Shown here one piece after another: positions 38,437-51,601 of a stretch of DNA of 64,000 bases. The notes below the pieces were generated by a model, which made no database searches, was not told where the DNA came from, and saw nothing but the letters and a program-made list of their open reading frames with translations. The first letter of the stretch is position 1, and each line of letters starts with the position of its first letter. Position numbers and translations under genes: made by a program. Source of the stretch: Verrucomicrobiota bacterium. Lineage in GTDB: Bacteria > Verrucomicrobiota > Verrucomicrobiia > Opitutales > Cerasicoccaceae. The stretch is taken from contig JBCBUK010000003.1 in assembly GCA_039818205.1 (NCBI GenBank), forward strand, positions 64,001-128,000. The letters are read 5' to 3'.

Positions 38437-38718
38437 ATGCAACCAGCCAAGCATTCACTCGTTCGACTGTGCTTCGGTTATGTGTTGATTGCGCTTTCGA
38501 CGACCTTGTGGTTGATCGCTCCCTGGCCATGGTGGATCCCGGGTCTCGACATCCTGACGCGTGCCCTCGCGGGTTTGTCGCTGATCGCTTCGGCAGAACT
38601 GAGTTTTTACCTCGGCCTATGGGTTCTGGGACCGGGCGAAGCTGAGCATTTTTATCGCTGGGCGCGGTTTAAGCGCGGCTTCCGACGCCTGATGGATTAT
38701 TTGGCGCTCAAATGGTGA
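38437..38718 (+). CDS. Small two-TM membrane protein (resembles 'transporter suffix domain' proteins)
   Basis: 93 aa with two hydrophobic helices, AELSFYLGLWVLG and a basic tail; preceded by a good promoter. Confidence 0.55.
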   Translation: MQPAKHSLVRLCFGYVLIALSTTLWLIAPWPWWIPGLDILTRALAGLSLIASAELSFYLGLWVLGPGEAEHFYRWARFKRGFRRLMDYLALKW

Positions 38719-39317
38719 CGTTGGCGCTGCCAGGAATCCAGATCATCGACGTCTTCGAGCGTGCTCAGCGACATCCCGTGCCAACCCGCTTGGTTGGCTC
38801 GGGTAATTGTTTCATCAAAGACTTTCTCTGTGCTCCAAGGCATGTCCTCGAATAGACTCGGCAGCGTGGCTTTGAGCCCGAGCAAGGTGTAGCCGCCGTC
38901 ACGGGCCGGTCCGATGACGAAGTCTTTCGAATCGAGAAAACGGTCGGCTTCCTGCAGGTACGGCGTGACCAAGCCGGGGCAGTCCGCGCCCATGAGAAAT
39001 ACTTTATGGGCTCCTTGATCCAACGCTCTTTGGGCGGCAGCTATTAGTCGGGCGCCGAGGTCGCCAGCGGGCTGTGCCTGATAGCTATCGGCACCCGGAA
39101 GCCAGGCGCGAAATTCCGCTTCGGCATCGGCCGGTGCATAGTGGATGTTGCGAAGCCAGGATGGGGGCAACTGAGCCCACTGATGTTCGACTAACCGTCG
39201 GTAGATAGCAACGGCTTCATCATTACCGCCTTCTAAATCTGCCGCCAAGCGGGTTTTGACGAGTCCCGGTCGCGGCGCCTTGAGCATCAATGCAACGTGG
39301 GTGGCGGGCTCACTCAA
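38697..39317 (-). CDS. TIGR04282/DUF2064-family arsenosugar-associated transferase
   Basis: Motifs KAPRPGLVKTRL, Q..GDLGARL, GADCP, VIGPARDGGYTLLG, MPWST and DVDD. The likely TTG start at 39317 overlaps the upstream stop codon. Confidence 0.88.
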   Translation of the reverse strand: MSEPATHVALMLKAPRPGLVKTRLAADLEGGNDEAVAIYRRLVEHQWAQLPPSWLRNIHYAPADAEAEFRAWLPGADSYQAQPAGDLGARLIAAAQRALDQGAHKVFLMGADCPGLVTPYLQEADRFLDSKDFVIGPARDGGYTLLGLKATLPSLFEDMPWSTEKVFDETITRANQAGWHGMSLSTLEDVDDLDSWQRQRHHLSAK

Positions 39318-40083
39318 AACGATAGACAAAGTTTGAGAACGGATAGCCACCTTCGGGTTCAGCTAAACCCAGCACCAGGTGGTCAAAGAATGATTTGCTC
39401 GCGGCAAGGTTGCCCTGCAGCTCTTCAATGGGAGTTGGGGTCGTTTGAACGCCATTGGCGTAGTCGACACCAAAACACACGAGCGAGTAGGGGAGCTCCA
39501 ATTCATTGGCGAGAACCGCTTCTGGTCCGCAGGTTTGCGAGATGAAGTCAACGCCGGCCGCTTGAAGCGCTTTGATTTCCGATTTCGTGTTAAACCGTGG
39601 GCCATTTACATGGCCGTATACGCCCTCGGAAGCTGCCTGCATGGATTGCCCTTCGGCCAGGGATTGGATCGCCGCATTGAGCGAATGGTTCACCAGGCTT
39701 TCAGCGAGAAGGTGGCCACGAGCGGGATCACCCGCTTGGTCGAAAATGGTGCAAATCTCGCCGCTCGACAATCGATTGTCGGGAAAATGGATGTCTTTAG
39801 CCACTAGTGGCTGCCCCAGGGGGAGGTTTGGGTCCAGAATCCCAACCACGGAAAGCGAAACGATGGCAGTGGCTCCGGCTTGCTTCAGGGCAACAAGGTT
39901 AGCCTGGTGGTTGATGTGGTTCGGAAGATTTGTATGCTGTGCGCCATGACGGGGAAGCAACAGGGCTTTCCGGTCACCGATCGTGCCCGCCAGGAATTGC
40001 GCCTCACCAAAAGGCGTTTCCACATACTGAACATCCAAACCGGCAAAATCGTAGAAGCCGGATCCCGTAATGAATGCGATCAT
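39310..40083 (-). CDS. MTAP-family purine nucleoside phosphorylase
   Basis: Motifs ITGSG, ETPFG, PRHG..H..P..INHQAN, GPRFNTKSE, T..PEA.LA.EL and VDY. Confidence 0.88.
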   Translation of the reverse strand: MIAFITGSGFYDFAGLDVQYVETPFGEAQFLAGTIGDRKALLLPRHGAQHTNLPNHINHQANLVALKQAGATAIVSLSVVGILDPNLPLGQPLVAKDIHFPDNRLSSGEICTIFDQAGDPARGHLLAESLVNHSLNAAIQSLAEGQSMQAASEGVYGHVNGPRFNTKSEIKALQAAGVDFISQTCGPEAVLANELELPYSLVCFGVDYANGVQTTPTPIEELQGNLAASKSFFDHLVLGLAEPEGGYPFSNFVYRFE

Positions 40084-40086
40084 GGC

Positions 40087-41244
40087 CTAGCAGCAAGATC
40101 CGCCACCACCTTCGCAGCAGCTGGATGCATCATTGGTCGCCTGGTAATCTCGGCCCTTGGTTTCCCGAGGATCGCGTCGCTGATCCGGCGCAGAATCAAA
40201 TGGTTTCGCTACCTGAGGATCAATGATCTGCCGTGGCTCAATAAATTCGAAATTACCGGCATAGGGAGATTGTTGGAGAAGCTGAAAGGTTTTGTCGCAG
40301 ACTGCTTGGCGGACGCCGCGCAGGTAGCAATGGTTGTCATCGTCGTAGACCTCACTAAAAGGCCCCTTGTAGATTACTGCTTGATTGCAGTCCCAGCACT
40401 CACCCTGTTTGCCCTTGAATGCACGCAGGGTCATGGAGCGGAATTCGATCCCCTGCACCGTGCGCCAGGGTTCTTGGTCGAGCTTGAGGATCTCGATCCC
40501 GTAAAAGCCAGCGTCTTCAAATGCCTGGATAAAATCTTCTTCAGTCATGGCTCCCGAAATGCAGCCACTCCACAGATCGGGGTCTTGCTGCATCTCTTCC
40601 GGGACGGGCTCATCGGCAACGATGTCAGAAATCACCGCCCGGCCACCAAGCTTTAGGACTCGGAAAATCTCTTCAAATAGCTGTCGCTTCTCGCGGCCTT
40701 CGACAAGGTTGAGTACGCAATTGGAAACCACGACATCGACCGAATCGTCTTCGATCAGCGGCTGCTTCGTGCGAATGCTTTCCGCTACCTCGTTGAGTGC
40801 CTCGTATTGGGACAAGCTGGTGATGGGGCGCTCCTTGAGCTCTTGATCAAGTGTCTTGAGGTCCAACTTAAGGTCCTGGATGCGGCCCTTGCGAAACTCA
40901 ACGTTTGCGTATCCGAGCTTCTCAGCGATGACTGGAGCATTACGGTTGGCAACCTCGAGCATGTCGTCGGTCATGTCGACGCCGATTACTCGGCCCTCTG
41001 GCCCGACTACTTGAGAGGCAATGAAACAGATCTTTCCGGCGCCGGATCCCAGATCGAGCACGGTTTCTCCAGGCTGCACGTAGCGGGACGGATCGCCGCA
41101 GCCGTAGTCCTTAGCGATCACTTCTTCGGGGATAATCTCCAAATACTTCGGATCATAGTTTACTGGGCAGCAGAGCGCTTGCTCGCGCTCTTTGGCGGCC
41201 TCAGCGTAGCGGTTCATTACAGATGTTTGAGTATTCATTGCCAT
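40087..41244 (-). CDS. arsM: Arsenite S-adenosylmethionine methyltransferase (long AS3MT/ArsM type)
   Basis: Motifs LCCP, YGCG, VLDLGSGAG, SNCVLNL, WSGCISGA and a C-terminal CC...CC tail. The start is ATG 41244 or 41238. Confidence 0.88.
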   Translation of the reverse strand: MAMNTQTSVMNRYAEAAKEREQALCCPVNYDPKYLEIIPEEVIAKDYGCGDPSRYVQPGETVLDLGSGAGKICFIASQVVGPEGRVIGVDMTDDMLEVANRNAPVIAEKLGYANVEFRKGRIQDLKLDLKTLDQELKERPITSLSQYEALNEVAESIRTKQPLIEDDSVDVVVSNCVLNLVEGREKRQLFEEIFRVLKLGGRAVISDIVADEPVPEEMQQDPDLWSGCISGAMTEEDFIQAFEDAGFYGIEILKLDQEPWRTVQGIEFRSMTLRAFKGKQGECWDCNQAVIYKGPFSEVYDDDNHCYLRGVRQAVCDKTFQLLQQSPYAGNFEFIEPRQIIDPQVAKPFDSAPDQRRDPRETKGRDYQATNDASSCCEGGGGSCC

Positions 41245-41251
41245 GTCTAAA

Positions 41252-42238
41252 CTAGTTGAGTGCTCCGCCACACGACGAACCGGCTCCAGCCGTGCAGCCG
41301 AAGCAGTGGGGGCCCGTTGCAATGGGACGCGAGAAGTCTTTTTCGGTGATGTCCCAAACGCGCGGCGGTGAGTCTCCAGCCCAGATCATGCCAAGCTGTT
41401 GATTAAAGTCACAATCGTAAACATATCCCTGCCAATCAATGCTTAATGTATCGCGGCACATGAGGTGGTTTACCGAGCCCGGGTTAAAATTATCCACCAG
41501 GAGCTTCATATAGTCCGCGAGTTGTCCCTGCCGCTTTAGCCAGGAGGCAAATCGGGCAATTGGCATATTGGTGATGGTGTAGAGCTGGTGAAACTCGATC
41601 CCGAAGTGTTTTTTCAATTCCGTTTTGTAGTCGGCTTCGAGTTCGGCCTGATCGGGTGGTAGGGACGCGCCCACGGGATTGTAGACCAGATTCAGGGGCA
41701 GAGCATCATCGATTCCGTAGCCCAAGGAGTTCAAGAGCTGAAGGGCTTTGATGCTGCCGTCGAAGACGCCATCGCCGCGCTGGGCGTTAACATTGTCCGG
41801 AGAATAACAGGGCATTGAAGCGGTGATCTCGACGCGGTTTTGCGCCATAAATTCCGCAAGTCCCTCATAGCCAGGCTCCAACAGGATCGTTAAATTGCAG
41901 CGATCGATAATGCGGCGTTGGGCATCCTGAGCCCTAAGCGTTTCGATCAGGTAGCGGAAATCCGGGATCATCTCGGGGGCACCTCCCGTGAGGTCGACGA
42001 TTGGTAGGGGAAACTTTTCCAGCCATCCCAATAGGCCGTCAACCGTTTCCCGAGTCATAATTTCTTTCCGACTGGGGCCCGCATTCACATGGCAATGGAT
42101 GCAGGTGAGATTGCACAATCGGCCAACGTTAACCTGTAAGGTAGTTGGCTGGGAGCGGACGAGCTCCTGACCCGCGGCTCTCAGCGCCGCAAGGAAATTT
42201 GGCGCCGGTCTTTCGGCTATCTTCGTGTCATTTAGCAT
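41252..42238 (-). CDS. arsS: Arsenosugar biosynthesis radical SAM protein (TIGR04167 type)
   Basis: LQVNVGRLCNLTCIHCHVNAGP (CxxxCxxC), DLTGGAPE, LMCR, YDCDFNQ and the C-terminal HCFGCTAGAGSSCGG. Confidence 0.93.
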   Translation of the reverse strand: MLNDTKIAERPAPNFLAALRAAGQELVRSQPTTLQVNVGRLCNLTCIHCHVNAGPSRKEIMTRETVDGLLGWLEKFPLPIVDLTGGAPEMIPDFRYLIETLRAQDAQRRIIDRCNLTILLEPGYEGLAEFMAQNRVEITASMPCYSPDNVNAQRGDGVFDGSIKALQLLNSLGYGIDDALPLNLVYNPVGASLPPDQAELEADYKTELKKHFGIEFHQLYTITNMPIARFASWLKRQGQLADYMKLLVDNFNPGSVNHLMCRDTLSIDWQGYVYDCDFNQQLGMIWAGDSPPRVWDITEKDFSRPIATGPHCFGCTAGAGSSCGGALN

Positions 42239-42255
42239 GAGTGGGCAATCTCTTT

Positions 42256-42283
42256 AGCATGTGTGCGTCGCGTTGAAGGTCAA
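42256..42283 (-). promoter_or_regulatory. Putative sigma70 promoter of the arsS-arsM operon
   Basis: The minus strand reads TTGACC-N16-CATGCT, ending 17 nt before the arsS ATG. Confidence 0.4.
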
Positions 42284-42351
42284 TTCCTTGCAAAGTATCT
42301 CCGAACCTGATTTACCTGTAATGAAACCAACGGTGTCGCGACCAATTGGGA

Positions 42352-43083
42352 ATGAAACGCTTCTTAGCATTGCTATTCTTTGCCGCATGGACCTCGCTGA
42401 ACGCCGGGACCCATTCGGACTTGTATAACTCCTATGGTGAGTTGCTGTCCAAATACGTTAAACCATCAGGAGTAGATTATCAATCCTGGGTGGTCAATGA
42501 CGAGGATGTGGACGCGCTTTACGATTTGCTCATGGCGATGTCCATTGTCGACGTCGACTCACTGTCTGATGACGAGCAGCAGGCGTTTTACATCAATTTA
42601 TACAATGCGGCAATGATCCAAGCAGTCTTGGAGAATTATCCGCTTAAGACGGTCACGACGATATTGCCGGGTTTTGGGATTTTCGAAAAGAAATACATCC
42701 AGCTGGGCGACCGCGTATTGTCGCTGAACGAAGTTGAAAAATCGATTTTGTTGGAGCGGTGGGACGAGCCTCGGATTCATTTTGCGGTCAATTGCGCCAG
42801 TGCTAGTTGCCCGCCTTTGCGCAACGAGCCCTTTACCGGCGAAAAGCTGGAAACCCAGCTACAAGAGCAGACCGAACAGTTTGCTGAAACCAAGCATGCT
42901 CTTCGACTCGACCGCAAAAACCGCACTGCCTATGTCAGCTCATTGTTTGATTGGTATGCTGACGACTTTCCCGGTGATTCACCGCTACACTACCTGAACC
43001 GCTACCGTCAGAAATCGATTCCAACTCGCTACAAGGTGAAGTTCATCAACTATGACTGGTCGCTCAACGAAGCCAAAAACTAG
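42352..43083 (+). CDS. Exported DUF547 protein
   Basis: Signal peptide and motifs AFYINLYNA, EPRIHFAVNCASASCPPL, FDWYADDF and YDWSLN. Confidence 0.9.
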   Translation: MKRFLALLFFAAWTSLNAGTHSDLYNSYGELLSKYVKPSGVDYQSWVVNDEDVDALYDLLMAMSIVDVDSLSDDEQQAFYINLYNAAMIQAVLENYPLKTVTTILPGFGIFEKKYIQLGDRVLSLNEVEKSILLERWDEPRIHFAVNCASASCPPLRNEPFTGEKLETQLQEQTEQFAETKHALRLDRKNRTAYVSSLFDWYADDFPGDSPLHYLNRYRQKSIPTRYKVKFINYDWSLNEAKN

Positions 43084-43114: not shown

Positions 43115-45418
43115 ATGGCTGCTATTTCTCGCTACTATCACTGGCTCCACGGCAAATGGCCGTCGGGTGCCACCGAAAAAATGCCCAAGATCGCTGAAGA
43201 TGGGCAAACCGACATTCCCGGCGTTCGCGTCGTGGGTGACTTGACCGGTGTTCCTTTGCTCAAGTTCTCCGCCGACACCGGGGCAAAGGCCATCGATGGC
43301 ATCCTCGCCGAAAACGATTTCAAGCCAGGAGACGATCCCGAAGTCTTGGACGTCGCGATCATTGGAGCAGGGGTGTCGGGTATCTCTGCCGCGATCCAAG
43401 CCAAGAAGGCAGGCCTGCGCTACGAGGTGTTTGAATCTCAGGAAAGCTTTTCGACGATCCGGAATTTTCCGCGTCGCAAGCCAATTTACACCTATCCGAC
43501 CAACATGGAGCCGGCGGGCGAAATGCGGTTTCGCGCTGATGTGAAGGAAGATTTGCTCGTTGAGCTCGAAGCGCAGCGCGTTGAGCACGGTATTGAAACA
43601 ACCGTTGGAGAGGTCGACCACGTCGAACACGGTGGAAGCGGCCTTAAGGTCGTTTTCAAGGAGAAGTCAGGCCGTGACCCACAGCGGGCGCAGCGCGTCA
43701 TTGTGGCAATTGGCCGGACGGGTAATTTCCGGAAGCTGAATGTCCCCGGCGAGAATTTGGACAAGGTGTCGAATCGCCTGATTGATGCCCGCGAGTTCAA
43801 GGGGCAAAAGGTGCTCGTCGTTGGCGGTGGAGACTCGGCTTTGGAAGCTGCCATCTCTTTGGCGGAAGAAGGTGCCGAGGTAACGCTCAGCTATCGCAGC
43901 GCCGAGTTCAAACGCCCGAAGCCAGACAATATCGATCGTATTCAGCAGATGGCGAAAGACGGGGAGTTGGCCCTGATGATGCGCTCGAACGTTCAGGATA
44001 TTGGTGAGGAATCAGTCACGATCTGCGATGAGAATGATCAGGACGTTACCAAATCCATTGACCAGGTCTTTATTTTGATTGGCCGTGAGCCACCCTTGGA
44101 TTTTTTCCGGAAGTCGAAAGTTTCCATTATCGGAGAGCTGACGACGAAGAGCATCATTGGGTTGGTCGCCTTCCTGGCGGTGATGACTTTTCTCTACCAC
44201 CTGAAGGCCTACAAGCCATTCCTGGGAATTCCGGGAACGAATCTCTGGCAGGTCTTTTCCGCCAACAAATGGTTCCCATTCAATCTGCCGATTGCAGGGG
44301 GTGATAGCAGTTTCCTGCATGTGATCACCAAGAATGCTGCCAGCGATCCAGGCTTCCTCTTCGCCTTCCTGTACACGATGGTGATCGTCATTTTTGGGGC
44401 AAAGCGGATCAAGCGGCGTAAAACACCGTACGTAACCCGACAGACGCTCACCCTGATGGCGTTTCAGGTGATTCCGTTGTTCATTCTTCCTTACGTGGTG
44501 TTGCCTTGGATGGGGGCGAACGGCTGGTTTACCAGCGGCGGAATTGGTGAGTGGTTTGGCATGACTTTCTTGTCGAACGGCCCCGGAACCACGCCGGACC
44601 AGTATTGGCGGGCCTTCGGGTTTATTCTGGCCTGGCCCTTGTTCATTTACAACGTGTTCACCCCGGGTCCGCTTTGGGGGTGGCTCGTGTTGAGCCTGAT
44701 CCAGACTTTCATCATTATCCCGCTGATTGTTCGTCGCTGGGGGAAGGGTGCCTATTGCGGATGGATTTGCTCCTGCGGCGCGATGGCTGAAACCTTGGGC
44801 GACCAGCATCGACACAAGATGCCCCATGGCCCCAAGGTCAATCGCCTGAACATGATCGGGCAGGCTATCTTGGCGATCGCTTTCCTGCTACTGGCGTTGA
44901 GAGTCGTCGGCTGGGTCGTCCCCAACAACGGATTCAACCAGTTTGTTTCGGGGTTAATCGGGGACAACAGTTTCTTCAGCTACAAGGTCATCATCGACCT
45001 GTGGCTCGCCGGTGCGATTGGCTATGGATTGTATTTTCATTATTCCGGTCGGGTCTGGTGCCGCTTTGCGTGTCCTCTGGCCGCATTGATGCACATTTAC
45101 GCCCGTTTCTCGAAATTCCGCATTTTCGCCGACAAGAAGAAGTGCATCTCGTGTAACGCCTGCACGTCGATTTGCCACCAGGGCATCGATATCATGAATT
45201 TCGCGAACAAGGGGCTTCCCCTGGAGGATCCCGAGTGCGTCCGCTGTTCAGCTTGTGTGCAGGTTTGCCCGACCGGCGTGCTGAATTTCGGACGCTTCGA
45301 CAAGAACGACAAAGCAGTCCTCGAACGCCTTTGGGCCTCGCCGGTGCAGATGCGTGAAGCGGAGATCAGTGCGACGCCGATTGACGATTATTTGTCCCAG
45401 GCAACGAAAAAAGTCTGA
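43115..45418 (+). CDS. Fusion of a TrxB/YpdA-like FAD/NAD(P)H oxidoreductase with a NapH/RdxA-like membrane polyferredoxin
   Basis: GAGVSG (FAD) and GGGDSALE (NAD(P)H), several TM helices, CGWICSCG, WCRFACP, and two 4Fe-4S motifs (CISCNACTSICH, CVRCSACVQVCP). Confidence 0.85.
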   Translation: MAAISRYYHWLHGKWPSGATEKMPKIAEDGQTDIPGVRVVGDLTGVPLLKFSADTGAKAIDGILAENDFKPGDDPEVLDVAIIGAGVSGISAAIQAKKAGLRYEVFESQESFSTIRNFPRRKPIYTYPTNMEPAGEMRFRADVKEDLLVELEAQRVEHGIETTVGEVDHVEHGGSGLKVVFKEKSGRDPQRAQRVIVAIGRTGNFRKLNVPGENLDKVSNRLIDAREFKGQKVLVVGGGDSALEAAISLAEEGAEVTLSYRSAEFKRPKPDNIDRIQQMAKDGELALMMRSNVQDIGEESVTICDENDQDVTKSIDQVFILIGREPPLDFFRKSKVSIIGELTTKSIIGLVAFLAVMTFLYHLKAYKPFLGIPGTNLWQVFSANKWFPFNLPIAGGDSSFLHVITKNAASDPGFLFAFLYTMVIVIFGAKRIKRRKTPYVTRQTLTLMAFQVIPLFILPYVVLPWMGANGWFTSGGIGEWFGMTFLSNGPGTTPDQYWRAFGFILAWPLFIYNVFTPGPLWGWLVLSLIQTFIIIPLIVRRWGKGAYCGWICSCGAMAETLGDQHRHKMPHGPKVNRLNMIGQAILAIAFLLLALRVVGWVVPNNGFNQFVSGLIGDNSFFSYKVIIDLWLAGAIGYGLYFHYSGRVWCRFACPLAALMHIYARFSKFRIFADKKKCISCNACTSICHQGIDIMNFANKGLPLEDPECVRCSACVQVCPTGVLNFGRFDKNDKAVLERLWASPVQMREAEISATPIDDYLSQATKKV

Positions 45419-45494: not shown

Positions 45495-46976
45495 ATGGTG
45501 CTATTCTCTCACTTAATCTGGTGGACCTACGGACTGATGTGCTTTTTGCTTTTCGCATACGGCATCAACAGCTACGTCCTGATCGCATTGTTCGGGCGCC
45601 GCAAGCGGTTAGCCCTCGAAGATAATAAGCACCGCGCGGAGCAGTTTACTCAGAAGCTGGACAAAGGCGACGCTCAATGGCCACGGGTCTTGACGCAGTT
45701 GCCGGTCTACAACGAGCTGAATGTCGCTGAGCGTGTAATCCGAGCTGCGGTCGCCATGGAATACCCGGAAGGCTTGCATGAGGTCCAGGTCCTGGACGAC
45801 TCGACCGACGAAACTTGCGGAATGATCGATAAGGTCGTTGAGGAGTTGCAGGCCGAAGGCAAAAACGTGCGGGTGGTTCGTCGGGAGGATCGAGTCGGCT
45901 TTAAGGCAGGCGCATTAAATGAGGGGATGCACCAAAGCGATGCGCCACTGATTGCAATCTTTGACAGCGACTTCGTGCCTAATCCCGACTTTTTGTTGCG
46001 CAGCGTGCCGCAGATTGTTGAGCAGCCGGAAGTTGCTTTGGTGCAAGCGCGGTGGGGTCATCTAAACGATGACGAGTCCTGGTTGACCCGTTCGCTATCG
46101 ATTGGTATCGACGGTCACTTTGCCATCGAGCAACCCGCGCGGGCCTGGAACCAGCTCTACTTGAATTTTAATGGAACCGCCGGGGTGTGGCGCCGTGAAG
46201 CGATCGTTGATGCCGGTGGCTGGGAGGCTGATACGCTTACCGAAGACATGGACTTGTCCTACCGGGCTCAAATGAAAGGCTGGCGGATCCACTATTTGTT
46301 CGACGTCGCAGTACCGGCTGAGTTGCCGAATACCTTCGCCGCGTTCAAGAGCCAGCAGTTTCGTTGGGCCAAGGGATCTATCCAAACGGCGATCAAGCAC
46401 CTGCCTCGGGTGATCAAATCGAACGTGGGCACATTTAAGAAGGTGCAATCGATCTTCCACCTGACGCATTATTACATCCATATTTGCATGCTCTCGCTGG
46501 CTTTGCTGGCTTTGCCACTCCTATTTGCGCAGAACGCCGCACCGAGCCCCTGGGTCTGGATCGTGATCTCCTTACCGATTCTCCTGTCGACCGTTGGGCC
46601 GAGCCTGTTATATGTCGTCAGCCAGTTTGCCATCGATCCGCGGGTCGCCTGGCGGAAGCTTCGTTATTTGCCGGGTCTTATCCTGATTGGTTTTGGCATC
46701 TCGCTTTCAAATGCCCGGGCGGTTGTCGAGGCGCTTATTGGCCGCAAGACGGAGTTCGTGCGAACGCCCAAATGCGGTGTTTCCTCGCTGAAAAAATATA
46801 AGCTACCGAAGAACAGCCTACCTTGGTTTGAGATCCTTTTGGGTGCATACTGCCTTTTCACTTTGGTGTTGGCCTTGAAACTGGATCGTCCGGCATTGGG
46901 ACCGTTCATTCTGGTCTACATTATTGGATACTTGACGGTGGGCGGCTGTAGTTTGATGGAAACCCGGCGTCAGTAA
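45495..46976 (+). CDS. Processive-type GT2 (cellulose-synthase-like, CslA/CslC-like)
   Basis: Motifs QLPVYNE, DDSTD, FKAGAL, FDSDF, FNGTAG, TEDMD and QQFRW (D,D,D,QxxRW), with C-terminal TM helices. Confidence 0.9.
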   Translation: MVLFSHLIWWTYGLMCFLLFAYGINSYVLIALFGRRKRLALEDNKHRAEQFTQKLDKGDAQWPRVLTQLPVYNELNVAERVIRAAVAMEYPEGLHEVQVLDDSTDETCGMIDKVVEELQAEGKNVRVVRREDRVGFKAGALNEGMHQSDAPLIAIFDSDFVPNPDFLLRSVPQIVEQPEVALVQARWGHLNDDESWLTRSLSIGIDGHFAIEQPARAWNQLYLNFNGTAGVWRREAIVDAGGWEADTLTEDMDLSYRAQMKGWRIHYLFDVAVPAELPNTFAAFKSQQFRWAKGSIQTAIKHLPRVIKSNVGTFKKVQSIFHLTHYYIHICMLSLALLALPLLFAQNAAPSPWVWIVISLPILLSTVGPSLLYVVSQFAIDPRVAWRKLRYLPGLILIGFGISLSNARAVVEALIGRKTEFVRTPKCGVSSLKKYKLPKNSLPWFEILLGAYCLFTLVLALKLDRPALGPFILVYIIGYLTVGGCSLMETRRQ

Positions 46977-48979
46977 TGACGCCCGTTGACCAATTGCGTA
47001 ATTGGGTGTTTTGCCTCCTGGCGATTCTGCTCGTTGCGGTCGCATTGGTCTACGGGGAGATTGTGACAGCGTTCGATGCCGAGGGTGTTGCTCGGGTTTG
47101 GATTTATTTCTTGTTGGGGTTGAGCGGGTTTGCGCTGGTGTTCTGTTGGCCGCGACTGACGCCGAAGCGAGAGGTGGCTTTGCTACTCCTTTTGGGCGCT
47201 GTGGTGCGCTTGGCTCTTTTGCCAACAGCACCCTCAGACGACATCCATCGCTACCTATGGGAGGGTAAACTTGTTGCCGATGGCGTGAGCCCGTATGCGG
47301 CCACGGCCGATGACCCCATCTTCGCTGCCTATTTCGATGACCAGTGGGAGCGGATGAACCATCGGGACAAATGGACGGCCTATCCGCCTGGATCGGAACT
47401 CGTGTTCGCGCTGCTGGCAAAAATCAGTTACAGCACAACGGCGTTTAAGTTGGCGTTTATCGGGTTAGACCTGGTGGTTGTCGCCTTGGTGGCTGGCTTG
47501 CTGCACTTTCGATCGCTACCACTTCGCTGGGCTGGCTTCTATGCGTTTAACCCGATTGTGCTCATCTCATTTGCCGGGGAAGGACACTTCGATGTGCTGA
47601 TGATTGCACCCATGGTGGCCGCAGTTCTCGCCTCGGAACATAAGCGGTATTGGTTGGCTTTTGTCCTGTTGGGGATTGCGGTTCAGATGAAGATTTTCGC
47701 GCTCCTGGCGTTACCGTTTCTGATACGCGAGTGCGGATGGAAATACCTCGGTGCATTTATTCTCACGGTGGTGGTCATCTCGATTCCCTTCGCGGCGGAT
47801 ATTGGTAACATGGTCAATGGGCTTTTCCTTTTCGGCTCGGGGCGTAGTTTCAATGGCTTCGTGTATGATACCTGGCTGCGATGGTTTGATTCCCGGACCG
47901 TCGCGAACATCATTACGGCTGTTTTATTTTTGGGCCTCTGCGCATGGCGTTATTTTTCCAAAGCGCGATCCCATTGGGAAGGGGATTGGTATTTCGTTAT
48001 TGGAGCGCTGTTGATTCTTAGTCCGACGGTTCACTTTTGGTACCTGACATGGTTATTGCCCTTTGTCGCGCTACGCCCATCGATCGCGTGGCTTTGCTTT
48101 AGTTTAACCATGGGCGTCTATTTCCTGGTTTGGTCCAACGCCGAGTCGGGAGCGTGGGGCCTTACTCGCTTTGAATCAGGATTAATCTGGGTTCCGTTCT
48201 TGGCACTAGGGATTTATGAATGGACCCACTTTCATCGCAAGAAGGTGGAACGCCGTCGTGATTTTCCTGAAGGCTTGTCGGTTATCATACCGACCTTCAA
48301 TGCGGCCGATCATTTGCCTGACTGCTTGCAGTCGGTTGAAGCATCGAGCACGCCCGCTGAGGAGATCATTGTCGCGGACGGCGGCTCAACCGATAACACT
48401 TTGAACGTGGCTTCGCGAAACGAATGCCAGGTGGTGACGAGCCCGCTCGGGCGGGGAGAGCAGATTGCTGCTGGCTTGGAGCAGGCTAAGTATCGCTATG
48501 TGTTGATCTTGCACGCTGATTGCGTTCTGGGAACGCATGCCATCAAGCGCCTTCATCGACTCCTGAAAGATTCTCCGTTTGTGGTCGGCGGTTCCCTCGG
48601 ACAGCGCTTTAATCGGGCGAGCCCGATGTTGTTGTTTATTGAGGTGCTGAACGAGATTCGGGCAACGGTAGGCAGCGTGTCATTTGGAGATCAGGCGCAG
48701 TTTTTTGACCGTCGCTATCTTTCCAATGAGGCCTACCCGGCGCAGCCTTTGATGGAGGACGTAGAGCTGAGCCTGCGACTTCGTGAGCGGGGCCAGTGTG
48801 CTTATCTGGGTGAGGAGTTGGTCTCGGAAAGCGCGAAATGGCAACGCGTTGGCAGTTGGCAACGGATTGCCTTGGTATTTCGCTTTGTCGCCGTGTACCG
48901 TTGGACGCGGATCTGGTTTCCGGGGAAGGTCGGTGAGCTTAGCCGACGCCTTTACCGTGAGTATTATAGGCAGTCTTGA
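46976..48979 (+). CDS. Fusion of a GT87/DUF2029-like GT-C membrane domain with a TIGR04283-type GT2 domain
   Basis: N-part has SDDIHRYLWEG, YPP, AFNP, GHFD and PTVHFWY. C-part has SVIIPTFN, DGGSTD, GRGEQ, LHAD, FGDQ and PLMEDVE. Coupled to the previous gene by a TAATG overlap. Confidence 0.85.
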   Translation: MTPVDQLRNWVFCLLAILLVAVALVYGEIVTAFDAEGVARVWIYFLLGLSGFALVFCWPRLTPKREVALLLLLGAVVRLALLPTAPSDDIHRYLWEGKLVADGVSPYAATADDPIFAAYFDDQWERMNHRDKWTAYPPGSELVFALLAKISYSTTAFKLAFIGLDLVVVALVAGLLHFRSLPLRWAGFYAFNPIVLISFAGEGHFDVLMIAPMVAAVLASEHKRYWLAFVLLGIAVQMKIFALLALPFLIRECGWKYLGAFILTVVVISIPFAADIGNMVNGLFLFGSGRSFNGFVYDTWLRWFDSRTVANIITAVLFLGLCAWRYFSKARSHWEGDWYFVIGALLILSPTVHFWYLTWLLPFVALRPSIAWLCFSLTMGVYFLVWSNAESGAWGLTRFESGLIWVPFLALGIYEWTHFHRKKVERRRDFPEGLSVIIPTFNAADHLPDCLQSVEASSTPAEEIIVADGGSTDNTLNVASRNECQVVTSPLGRGEQIAAGLEQAKYRYVLILHADCVLGTHAIKRLHRLLKDSPFVVGGSLGQRFNRASPMLLFIEVLNEIRATVGSVSFGDQAQFFDRRYLSNEAYPAQPLMEDVELSLRLRERGQCAYLGEELVSESAKWQRVGSWQRIALVFRFVAVYRWTRIWFPGKVGELSRRLYREYYRQS

Positions 48980-50425: not shown

Positions 50426-51601
50426 CTACCCCAAGTAGGTGAGGACTTTATCCACCGGCGCGGTGATTAGACAGACGGATTCAAGGGATTGCTCCTCCGT
50501 CGTTTGCTTGAGGGTATCGACGATTTTCTGGGCAGATTCTTGGGGAAGGATCATTTGAATCGCACCGAGTTCGCGGTTGAGTCGAAGACCGGAGCCCGTG
50601 ACGTCGCATTCGCTTTCGACGAACTTACCAAAGATCGTGGTGGCGCCCGGGGCACCGGCGGCCAGTGCGGCCTCCATCAGGGTGTCGACTTGGCGGCGTT
50701 TGGTGACGCAGCTAACTCGGACCAGATTGTGGAGGTATTGTCGATTGCGGACGGTACCAAAGCCGAGAAAACTGAGGGCGCCTCCTGATTTGGGTTCGTT
50801 ATCAATCAGGTTGCTCGTAGCTCGCCAGTCCGCCGACCCTTTCATGTCATCAATGGCATGGATGATCTGCGGGATGCTGGCAGCATGCCGAGTGGGCTCG
50901 GTTACTCCAGGAAGCTTAATGATGCCGCGGTGGACCTCCGTCGAATAGATGATGCCGCGGCCCGGTTCGTCGAGTCGACCCGCCGCTGCCATTGCCTCAA
51001 AAACGGCCTCGGCATCCATTTCATCCACGATGACCTGAATGGTTTCTTTGTCCGGGTTCTGGGTGAATCGGAAAATGCCTAGTCGGTCGCGGACTCCTCG
51101 CCCCTCGCAGTAATAGATCGTTGGGCCGTGGGCGCCCGCTTTGATCGCGGCCCGCGCGACCGCTTCGGAAATTGCGGACTGAACGGTGGCCGTAATCCCG
51201 ATCAAATTCCGCTTAAAGCGTATCGTGACATCGCGATGCGGGTAGGTGAGTGCGCCGTTCTGCCAGGTTGGAAAATCGTCAGTTTTGTAGAGGCTCTTGC
51301 AGGGGCTTGTGAAAACCGCGCCCGCACCAGTGAGCCGTAATTGCCCCAATGCCACGACCTTCTCCATGAGGATATCGACTTCATCGCTTGGTAGGAGGAA
51401 CTGGAGAATCTCCTGCTCGGGGCTGATAATCGGAATGAGCGCTTGATACCAGCGATCCTTGATGACAGTGCCTCGCGCGTTCAAAGCCAACAGGAAACGT
51501 GCCGGGCAATCCATCAGGAAGTCGGCGACCTCACTGCTGGTTCTTCGCGGCAAAATTACGGTGACCAGATTCTGATCTTCCTGGGCAATCCACCTAGTCA
51601 T
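50426..51601 (-). CDS. Protein with three tandem P-II/GlnB-like domains
   Basis: Three ~100-aa units, each starting NL(V/I). Examples are AAIKAGAHGPTI...PDKETIQVIV...PGRGIIYST, AALAAGAPGATTI and ARGT...PEQEILQFLL...GAGAVFTSP. Confidence 0.75.
   Translation of the reverse strand: MTRWIAQEDQNLVTVILPRRTSSEVADFLMDCPARFLLALNARGTVIKDRWYQALIPIISPEQEILQFLLPSDEVDILMEKVVALGQLRLTGAGAVFTSPCKSLYKTDDFPTWQNGALTYPHRDVTIRFKRNLIGITATVQSAISEAVARAAIKAGAHGPTIYYCEGRGVRDRLGIFRFTQNPDKETIQVIVDEMDAEAVFEAMAAAGRLDEPGRGIIYSTEVHRGIIKLPGVTEPTRHAASIPQIIHAIDDMKGSADWRATSNLIDNEPKSGGALSFLGFGTVRNRQYLHNLVRVSCVTKRRQVDTLMEAALAAGAPGATTIFGKFVESECDVTGSGLRLNRELGAIQMILPQESAQKIVDTLKQTTEEQSLESVCLITAPVDKVLTYLG

Follow-up and report, generated by a model that had tools for sequence, protein, structure and literature searches.

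Which enzyme removes adenine from DDMAA on the way to the arsenosugars? Among the organic arsenic compounds of marine algae, arsenosugars are major species according to a review, and PMC10456119 lists them as β-ribosides. ArsS joins a 5′-deoxyadenosyl radical to DMA(III) to produce DDMAA, as stated in PMC13598754 and in bioRxiv 2026.04.29.721666, and in the papers accessible to us enzymes are assigned only up to this compound. Published passages refer to the removal of adenine without an enzyme name, or suggest, as a hypothesis, an ‘adenosyl nucleosidase’ of algae. No nucleoside phosphorylase was named for this step in the titles and abstract beginnings searched; primary papers and most subscription journals lay outside this search, and a prior mention is possible. 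Phosphorolysis by NP-I enzymes yields the free base and the α-1-phosphate of the ribose part; DDMAA would give adenine and 5-dimethylarsinoyl-ribose α-1-phosphate.

A gene that may catalyze this reaction lies in the 64-kb window (the whole stretch of DNA analyzed here, 64,000 nucleotides) at positions 40083-39310 of the minus strand. It starts with ATG and encodes a 257-aa nucleoside phosphorylase of MTAP fold (PF01048), which belongs to a group that we call the SQ clade. The gene order on the minus strand is arsS (41252..42238), an arsM-type gene (40087..41322), the phosphorylase gene and a TIGR04282/DUF2064 gene (38697..39350). The original prediction placed the phosphorylase between arsM and TIGR04282, and this is borne out: the gene begins 3 nt past the stop of the arsM-type gene (end at 40087), and whichever start codon the TIGR04282 gene uses (GTG 39350 or TTG 39317), its start overlaps the 3′ end of the phosphorylase gene. 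The longest arsM-type ORF opens at TTG 41322; translation probably starts at ATG 41244, which leaves a gap of 7 nt to the arsS stop. ArsS, the radical SAM As-adenosyltransferase, and the TIGR04282 protein both score above their curated cut-offs in the window (TIGR04167, 435 bits for a cut-off of 300; TIGR04282, 172 for 134). The best matches of the arsM-type product, an ArsM-type arsenite methyltransferase, are ArsM models, both below cut-off (NF040538, 339 bits for 500; PRK11873, 218 for 263).

A divergent operon on the plus strand comprises a DUF547 gene (42346-43083), a FAD/4Fe-4S oxidoreductase gene (43115-45418) and a GT2 gene (45495-46976), all assigned with Pfam and all recurrent in related cassettes at other loci. 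Its last gene (46976..48979) encodes a GT87-like membrane domain (PF09594, E 4e-6) fused to a TIGR04283-like GT2 domain scoring 164 bits, below the cut-off of 182. Of the known ArsM/ArsS pathway and the NCBIfam set TIGR04167, 04169, 04282 and 04283, the window thus contains arsS and TIGR04282, together with an arsM-type gene and a TIGR04283-like domain. The TIGR04282 protein resembles, from its sequence profile, a CofC/FbiD-like nucleotidyltransferase: a profile of 19 homologs matches the guanylyltransferase structures 3CGX, 7P97 (E 6e-10) and 6BWG (E 7e-9). The CofC/FbiD phospho(enol)acid guanylyltransferases (7P97, 6BWG) that are its profile relatives act in the F420 pathway. GC content across the window gave no island signal, the scan for sigma-70 promoters and terminators stayed at chance level, and an ECF-type promoter motif was not enriched in the window (12 matches for 18 expected). 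One copy of this motif, with one mismatch, is located in the arsS/DUF547 gap (42244-42269, plus strand). P-II-like domains (PF00543) occur elsewhere in the window, in a 391-aa protein (50426-51601, minus strand) that is followed by a 646-aa membrane protein; both are unrelated to the phosphorylase finding.

The protein is assigned to the nucleoside phosphorylase I superfamily by its PF01048 score (77.5 bits, cut-off 25.1). It falls below the cut-offs of both TIGR01694, the MTAP/MtnP equivalog model (148.9 bits for 274.85), and PRK09136, the MTI phosphorylase model (123.5 bits for 223). No NCBIfam model scored above its cut-off, and none tied to the arsenosugar gene set matched; relatives are labelled ‘MTAP family purine nucleoside phosphorylase’ in the sources. 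The AlphaFold model (pLDDT 92.9) superimposes on human MTAP with a Z of 30.8 and an rmsd of 2.1 Å over 246 residues, compared to a Z of about 22 for PNP-I, and Foldseek gave a TM of about 0.8 for the MTAP-like NP-I fold. With the MTAP structures (human 1CB0/3OZE, Schistosoma 4L5A) the protein shares the fold (Z about 29-31), the phosphate site, His124, the first base-binding Asp and the absence of a Glu at position 165. However, it is about 24-29% identical to them, carries Gln in place of Met and Ala in place of the second Asp, contains an insertion with a conserved Asn-Arg-Leu and a Cys, ends with Tyr-Arg-Phe and belongs to a separate clade. The best phmmer match in the PDB is the MTI phosphorylase of Pseudomonas (3OZB, E 7e-23), which likewise has the GPR motif and, behind the base residue, an x-Y-A-x-G loop, but in the window protein an Asn/Asp pair replaces Glu/Asn and Gln again replaces Met.

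The phosphate-site residues S8, R45, H46, S78 and T184 are all present, their roles being taken from MTAP as given in PMC5147791. Among the 120 best homologs, conservation is nearly complete (S8, 118/120; R45 and H46, 120/120; Ser or Thr at 78, 120/120; T184, 120/120), and it extends to S182 (120/120), Q183 (119/120) and D207 (120/120).

At the base site, the pair is N165 and D207, and the protein thus lacks the Glu and Asn that set base specificity in 6-oxopurine PNPs. In an alignment of 333 rows, 195 of the 213 SQ rows combine Asp207 with a residue other than Glu at 165, 61 Met-type rows carry the Glu and Asn pair, and Glu paired with Asp occurs in no row. The double substitution Glu201Gln:Asn243Asp switches human PNP to adenosine substrates (PMC2799393). 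We infer from the alignment that these two PNP positions are equivalent to 165 and 207, and an adenine-type base pocket is supported at the sequence level. The original prediction had aligned the Asp of VDY with the TDYD of MTAP. V206-D207-Y208 indeed aligns with human T219-D220-Y221 (numbers counted from the alignment), so the first Asp is kept, but the second, human D222, is Ala209 here. Ala is also found at this position in 51 of 57 members of the 6-oxopurine group.

At the ribose site, S182-Q183-T184 aligns with human N195-M196-T197 (numbers again counted from the alignment). The SQT motif had been correctly noted; the family motif, given as GMT, is more exactly GMT or NMT, with an invariant Met found in all MTAP-type (34/34) and all MTIP-type rows (57/57). 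The Ser-Gln pair is found in 187/187 Asp-type SQ rows, at the site where Met stands in 34/34 MTAP-type rows. In MTAP, the ribose site is mainly hydrophobic; the Asn-Met pair lines it together with a His and a C-terminal residue contributed by the next subunit (PMC5147791). Residues specific to the clade are R122, S182, Q183, N210, T217 and R255, as well as the Tyr-Arg-Phe that ends the chain. Position 122, two residues before His124, is Arg or Lys in 183/187 Asp-type SQ rows and mostly Val in MTAP-type rows (22/34); R255 is present in 177/187 Asp-type SQ rows. We assume, from alignments only, that the residue at 122 lines the 5′ pocket. In human MTAP, the structural alignment extends as far as residue 280, the neighbour of L279 in the pocket, as judged from its range only. 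Polar residues (Q183, S182, R122 and R255) thus appear, on alignment, to replace hydrophobic ones at the ribose and 5′ pocket, and such a pocket would suit an As=O group.

The basic residues near the putative 5′ pocket could also be read differently. The enzyme might act on the pathway but on a substrate other than neutral DDMAA, either an anionic 5′-substituted adenosine (for example a monomethylarsinate analogue or a 5′-phosphate) or an arsenic-free compound made by an ArsS-like enzyme. The specific Arg/Lys122 and R255, the divergent ArsS-like radical SAM proteins of some loci and the sub-threshold score of the window arsM all point this way. However, the window has a full-score ArsS with an adjacent arsM, Arg can also bind As=O, and the pocket assignment is an alignment-based one in which HMMER pairs R122 with human R133 and not with V135. 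We therefore consider such a substrate improbable and retain DDMAA as the preferred one.

To place the protein within the family, 584 homologs were collected and the best 120 (49-63% identical) examined. Among 401 genomes of the phylum, six SQ genes stand out at 294-441 bits, all other matches scoring at most 132. The trees omit fragments as well as five representatives that are partial or frameshifted, and close homologs were subsampled. FastTree (178 rows) separated SQ from canonical MTAP with a support of 95-99, and a quick IQ-TREE run (60 rows) gave supports of 81 for SQ, 99 for SQ with its sister group and 99 for MTAP. The AU test (30 rows) rejected nesting of the window protein with canonical MTAP (p=0.00017), as well as a single origin grouping all Asp-type enzymes (p=0.00002). 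The expectation that arsS-linked SQT homologs form their own clade is supported by the trees and by the first of these tests; the same p value of 0.00017 speaks against nesting among housekeeping orthologs, which had been named as part of an outcome that would refute the proposal. SQ enzymes form a real, well-conserved and apparently unnamed subfamily.

The sister clade of SQ retains the Met but carries a Lys at each of the two base-specificity positions (GPRTK, GHK; L137:9570-10358 and L138:9586-10380, from G006 and G035; P0199, P0173). It is accompanied by a TonB receptor, a PRK11622-type ABC transporter and an APH-type kinase, the last being fused in P0199, and G035 adds a DUF2064 gene; the cluster looks like one for uptake or processing of an unknown nucleoside-like compound. 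Within SQ, an Asn-type subclade (mostly Glu/Asn; L083, L087, L088, L097, L098 and related loci) is rarely ars-linked and adjoins YfhO, NAD epimerase, a Rv1679-like acyl-CoA dehydrogenase with a phosphonate-binding protein, MtnA, SelD and sometimes TIGR04282. No fusion to a pathway enzyme was found at 1e-20 among longer proteins, which is a weak test. One representative (P0129) is an SQ phosphorylase fused to a C-GCAxxG-C-C domain, and C-GCAxxG-C-C redox, rhodanese-like, VTT-domain and DUF547 genes recur in cassettes (P0129; L030, L053, L164).

Is the association with arsenosugar genes general? Linkage was scored in 86 SQ loci. Of 140 metagenomic loci, selected by SQ-type patterns, the best 80 were used; one further locus came from a genome scan and five from the set of 401 genomes. 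A locus was counted as linked when a BLAST match of at least 50 bits to arsS, TIGR04282, TIGR04283 or TIGR04169 lay within about 8 kb; most of the candidate ORFs scanned exceed the NCBIfam cut-offs, and a few fall just below. Among these 86 loci, Asp-type SQ genes were linked in 31/70 loci, in 22/41 loci of at least 10 kb and in 24/28 clusters at 70% identity, and Asn-type genes in 3/15 loci. By the same rule, canonical MTAP was linked in 1/20 control loci (17 top-scoring, and three picked for ArsS in the genome). The one linked control (G135) is itself a cassette-borne canonical MTAP, and in G450 a canonical MTAP adjoins an ArsS-like radical SAM gene, DUF547 and arsM, while another MTAP is retained next to mtnA. 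The cassette MTAPs of G135 and G450 are sisters (support 99), and both score above the TIGR01694 cut-off. A second lineage, canonical MTAP, has thus been separately recruited into the same cassette slot. In the arsM/TIGR04282 cassettes L136 and L164, a divergent radical SAM protein takes the place of arsS (L136:8687-9601, L164:8890-9831); the two are 31% identical to each other, have an ArsS-like Cys-rich C-terminus and are missed by TIGR04167.

The largest SQ branch, 32 loci at more than 70% identity, is ars-linked in one locus only. Most of its members (L032-L086 group, e.g. L041, L078) adjoin PGI, Rpe, RpiB, ROK kinase and glucosylglycerate-hydrolase-like genes. This context, together with the fact that the window gene is the sole MTAP/PNP-type gene of its genome, would be expected of a general purine-salvage phosphorylase, a stand-in housekeeping enzyme whose operon position is incidental. 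Ars-linked loci flank the branch in the trees, so the pentose-phosphate context looks derived, perhaps reflecting a shift to general ribose salvage. Moreover, the enzyme was not found in 5/5 congeners, and genomes G091, G295 and G427 have a separate PNP-I. Because of the ars linkage, seen in 24 of the 28 clusters and in whole genomes of two phyla, we regard a salvage role as very unlikely for the window enzyme.

The window genome is 99.97% complete, and tblastn found no second MTAP or PNP in it. The PF01048 profile retrieved three genes, of which the other two are HpnG/MTAN-like and below their cut-offs. The word ‘paralog’ in the original prediction must therefore be dropped, and derivation from a housekeeping mtnP of the same genome was rejected; that the gene is the genome's only MTAP is one half of the joint outcome named in advance as refuting the proposal, the other half, nesting among housekeeping orthologs, not being seen. 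SAH hydrolase is present in this genome, and MtnA, the methionine-salvage partner of MTAP, was not detected. Among congeners, the phosphorylase was matched in 0/5, TIGR04282 in 0/5 and ArsS in 0/4 tested; the block therefore appears to be gained or lost as a unit. Related genomes are not independent, and the counts that follow carry no p value.

ArsS is found in 18/401 genomes of the phylum, including 5/6 SQ genomes (three families); the sixth has an ArsS-like radical SAM gene, arsM and TIGR04282/04283 beside its SQ gene. TIGR04282 is present in all 18. Five of them have SQ, five a canonical-type MTAP (motif seen in three) and eight neither; in the window's own order, 8/10 ArsS genomes have TIGR04282 and no Asp-type MTAP-fold gene. 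Six of these eight exceptions belong to one family, in which a Glu/Asn-type PNP-I is the sole purine phosphorylase; a further, unrelated PF01048 domain occurs in one of the six. An IU-type nucleoside hydrolase is encoded in 5/8 exceptions and MTAN-like genes in one. In BLAST searches with PNP, MTAP, MTAN and DeoD-like proteins as queries, no match lay near TIGR04282 in nine ArsS genomes without SQ or in G521, or near arsS in 20/20 loci of a second phylum. FAMIN/YfiH, considered as another route, occurs in 0/8 exception genomes. G196 and G360 hold a near-complete cassette without the phosphorylase; their extra gene, considered as a replacement nucleosidase, has no Pfam or NCBIfam match and resembles hypothetical/DUF6503 clusters. 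This DUF6503-like gene lies between arsS and DUF547 in the two cassettes (L139:8414-9214, L142:8568-9500). In the eight genomes the step is thus done another way or is dispensable. The original prediction of a ‘dedicated’ DDMAA phosphorylase as ‘the’ missing step was too strong, given these genomes and the canonical MTAPs that seem to occupy this slot elsewhere.

Cassettes without the phosphorylase, and the occurrence of SQ where housekeeping MTAP is missing, would also fit an accessory clean-up enzyme. In that case a broad adenine-nucleoside phosphorylase, accompanying a cassette with a high demand for SAM, would remove inhibitory SAM by-products (abortive 5′-deoxyadenosine, MTA, adenosine from SAH) and recover adenine off the path to the sugar, and the polar ribose pocket would accommodate plain adenosine, like Q289 of Schistosoma MTAP. 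Yet ArsS consumes the deoxyadenosyl radical, SAH hydrolase is available, no MtnA is there to use the sugar phosphate, and the congeners live without any such enzyme. In split cassettes (G091, G295, G135), moreover, the phosphorylase stays with TIGR04282 and not with arsS/arsM. Clean-up thus seems unlikely to us. The narrower alternative of the original prediction, salvage of 5′-deoxyadenosine released by ArsS, is weak: since ArsS builds the radical into DDMAA, free 5′-deoxyadenosine would be at most an abortive product. Phosphorolysis of DDMAA itself is our preferred reading.

MtnA was found in 0/6 SQ genomes of the window's phylum, compared to 14/20 canonical-MTAP genomes. G451, a Sericytochromatia record, belongs to what we take to be the GTDB phylum holding cyanobacteria, and in this phylum ArsS is present in 45/121 genomes. 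Of these, 42 have a single MTAP-scoring gene, canonical by score (motifs checked in four, all TDYD), and no SQ, two have only SQ and one has neither. SQ and canonical MTAP are thus complementary in this phylum. In G491, SQ, TIGR04169, arsS, TIGR04282 and TIGR04283 lie on one strand. Both G451 and G491 have MtnA and SQ as the only MTAP-like gene, so SQ could serve salvage there.

Taken together, the intact phosphate site, the Asn/Asp base pair, the separate clade, the ars linkage and the distribution make the SQ family a strong candidate for the phosphorolysis of DDMAA in organisms lacking a housekeeping MTAP. In the route that we propose, ArsM makes DMA(III) and ArsS joins it to the 5′-deoxyadenosyl radical, as known for other ArsM/ArsS pairs. 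The phosphorylase would then cleave DDMAA with phosphate to adenine and α-5-dimethylarsinoyl-ribose-1-phosphate, and in genomes that lack a housekeeping MTAP the cassette enzyme would thereby supply the de-adenylation that follows ArsS. The TIGR04282 protein would activate this 1-phosphate with an NTP or, in a variant, activate a glycerol-phosphate acceptor instead. Finally, the TIGR04283 GT2 domain would transfer the arseno-ribose with inversion, to the β configuration. We think it probable that the SQ enzyme phosphorolyses DDMAA to supply arseno-ribose-1-phosphate to the CofC-like and GT2 transferases, a reading favoured by the likeness of TIGR04282 to guanylyltransferases of phosphorylated substrates. 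Several observations count against it: eight of the 18 ArsS genomes have no Asp-type MTAP-fold gene, the 32-locus branch is rarely ars-linked, the second adenine-binding Asp is lost, arsM and TIGR04283 score below cut-offs, and MtnA is present in G451 and G491. Moreover, should canonical MTAPs of the Met type catalyze this reaction too, DDMAA cleavage would not require Q183.

A more far-reaching version can be put forward tentatively, and we hold it to be somewhat doubtful. The SQ clade would be a so far undescribed family of phosphorylases with an organoarsenic nucleoside as its special substrate, and Gln183, Arg122 and Arg255 would read the As=O group. With TIGR04282 and TIGR04283 it would complete the route from DDMAA through arseno-ribose-1-phosphate and nucleotide-activated arseno-ribose to the β-arsenoriboside, ordinary MTAP performing the first step as a side activity where SQ is lacking.

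If the proposal is true, the complementary distribution predicts that a housekeeping MTAP carries out de-adenylation in cyanobacteria. Two so far unassigned transferases would be ordered behind the phosphorylase step, and the SQ clade would mark arsenosugar capacity in uncultured lineages.
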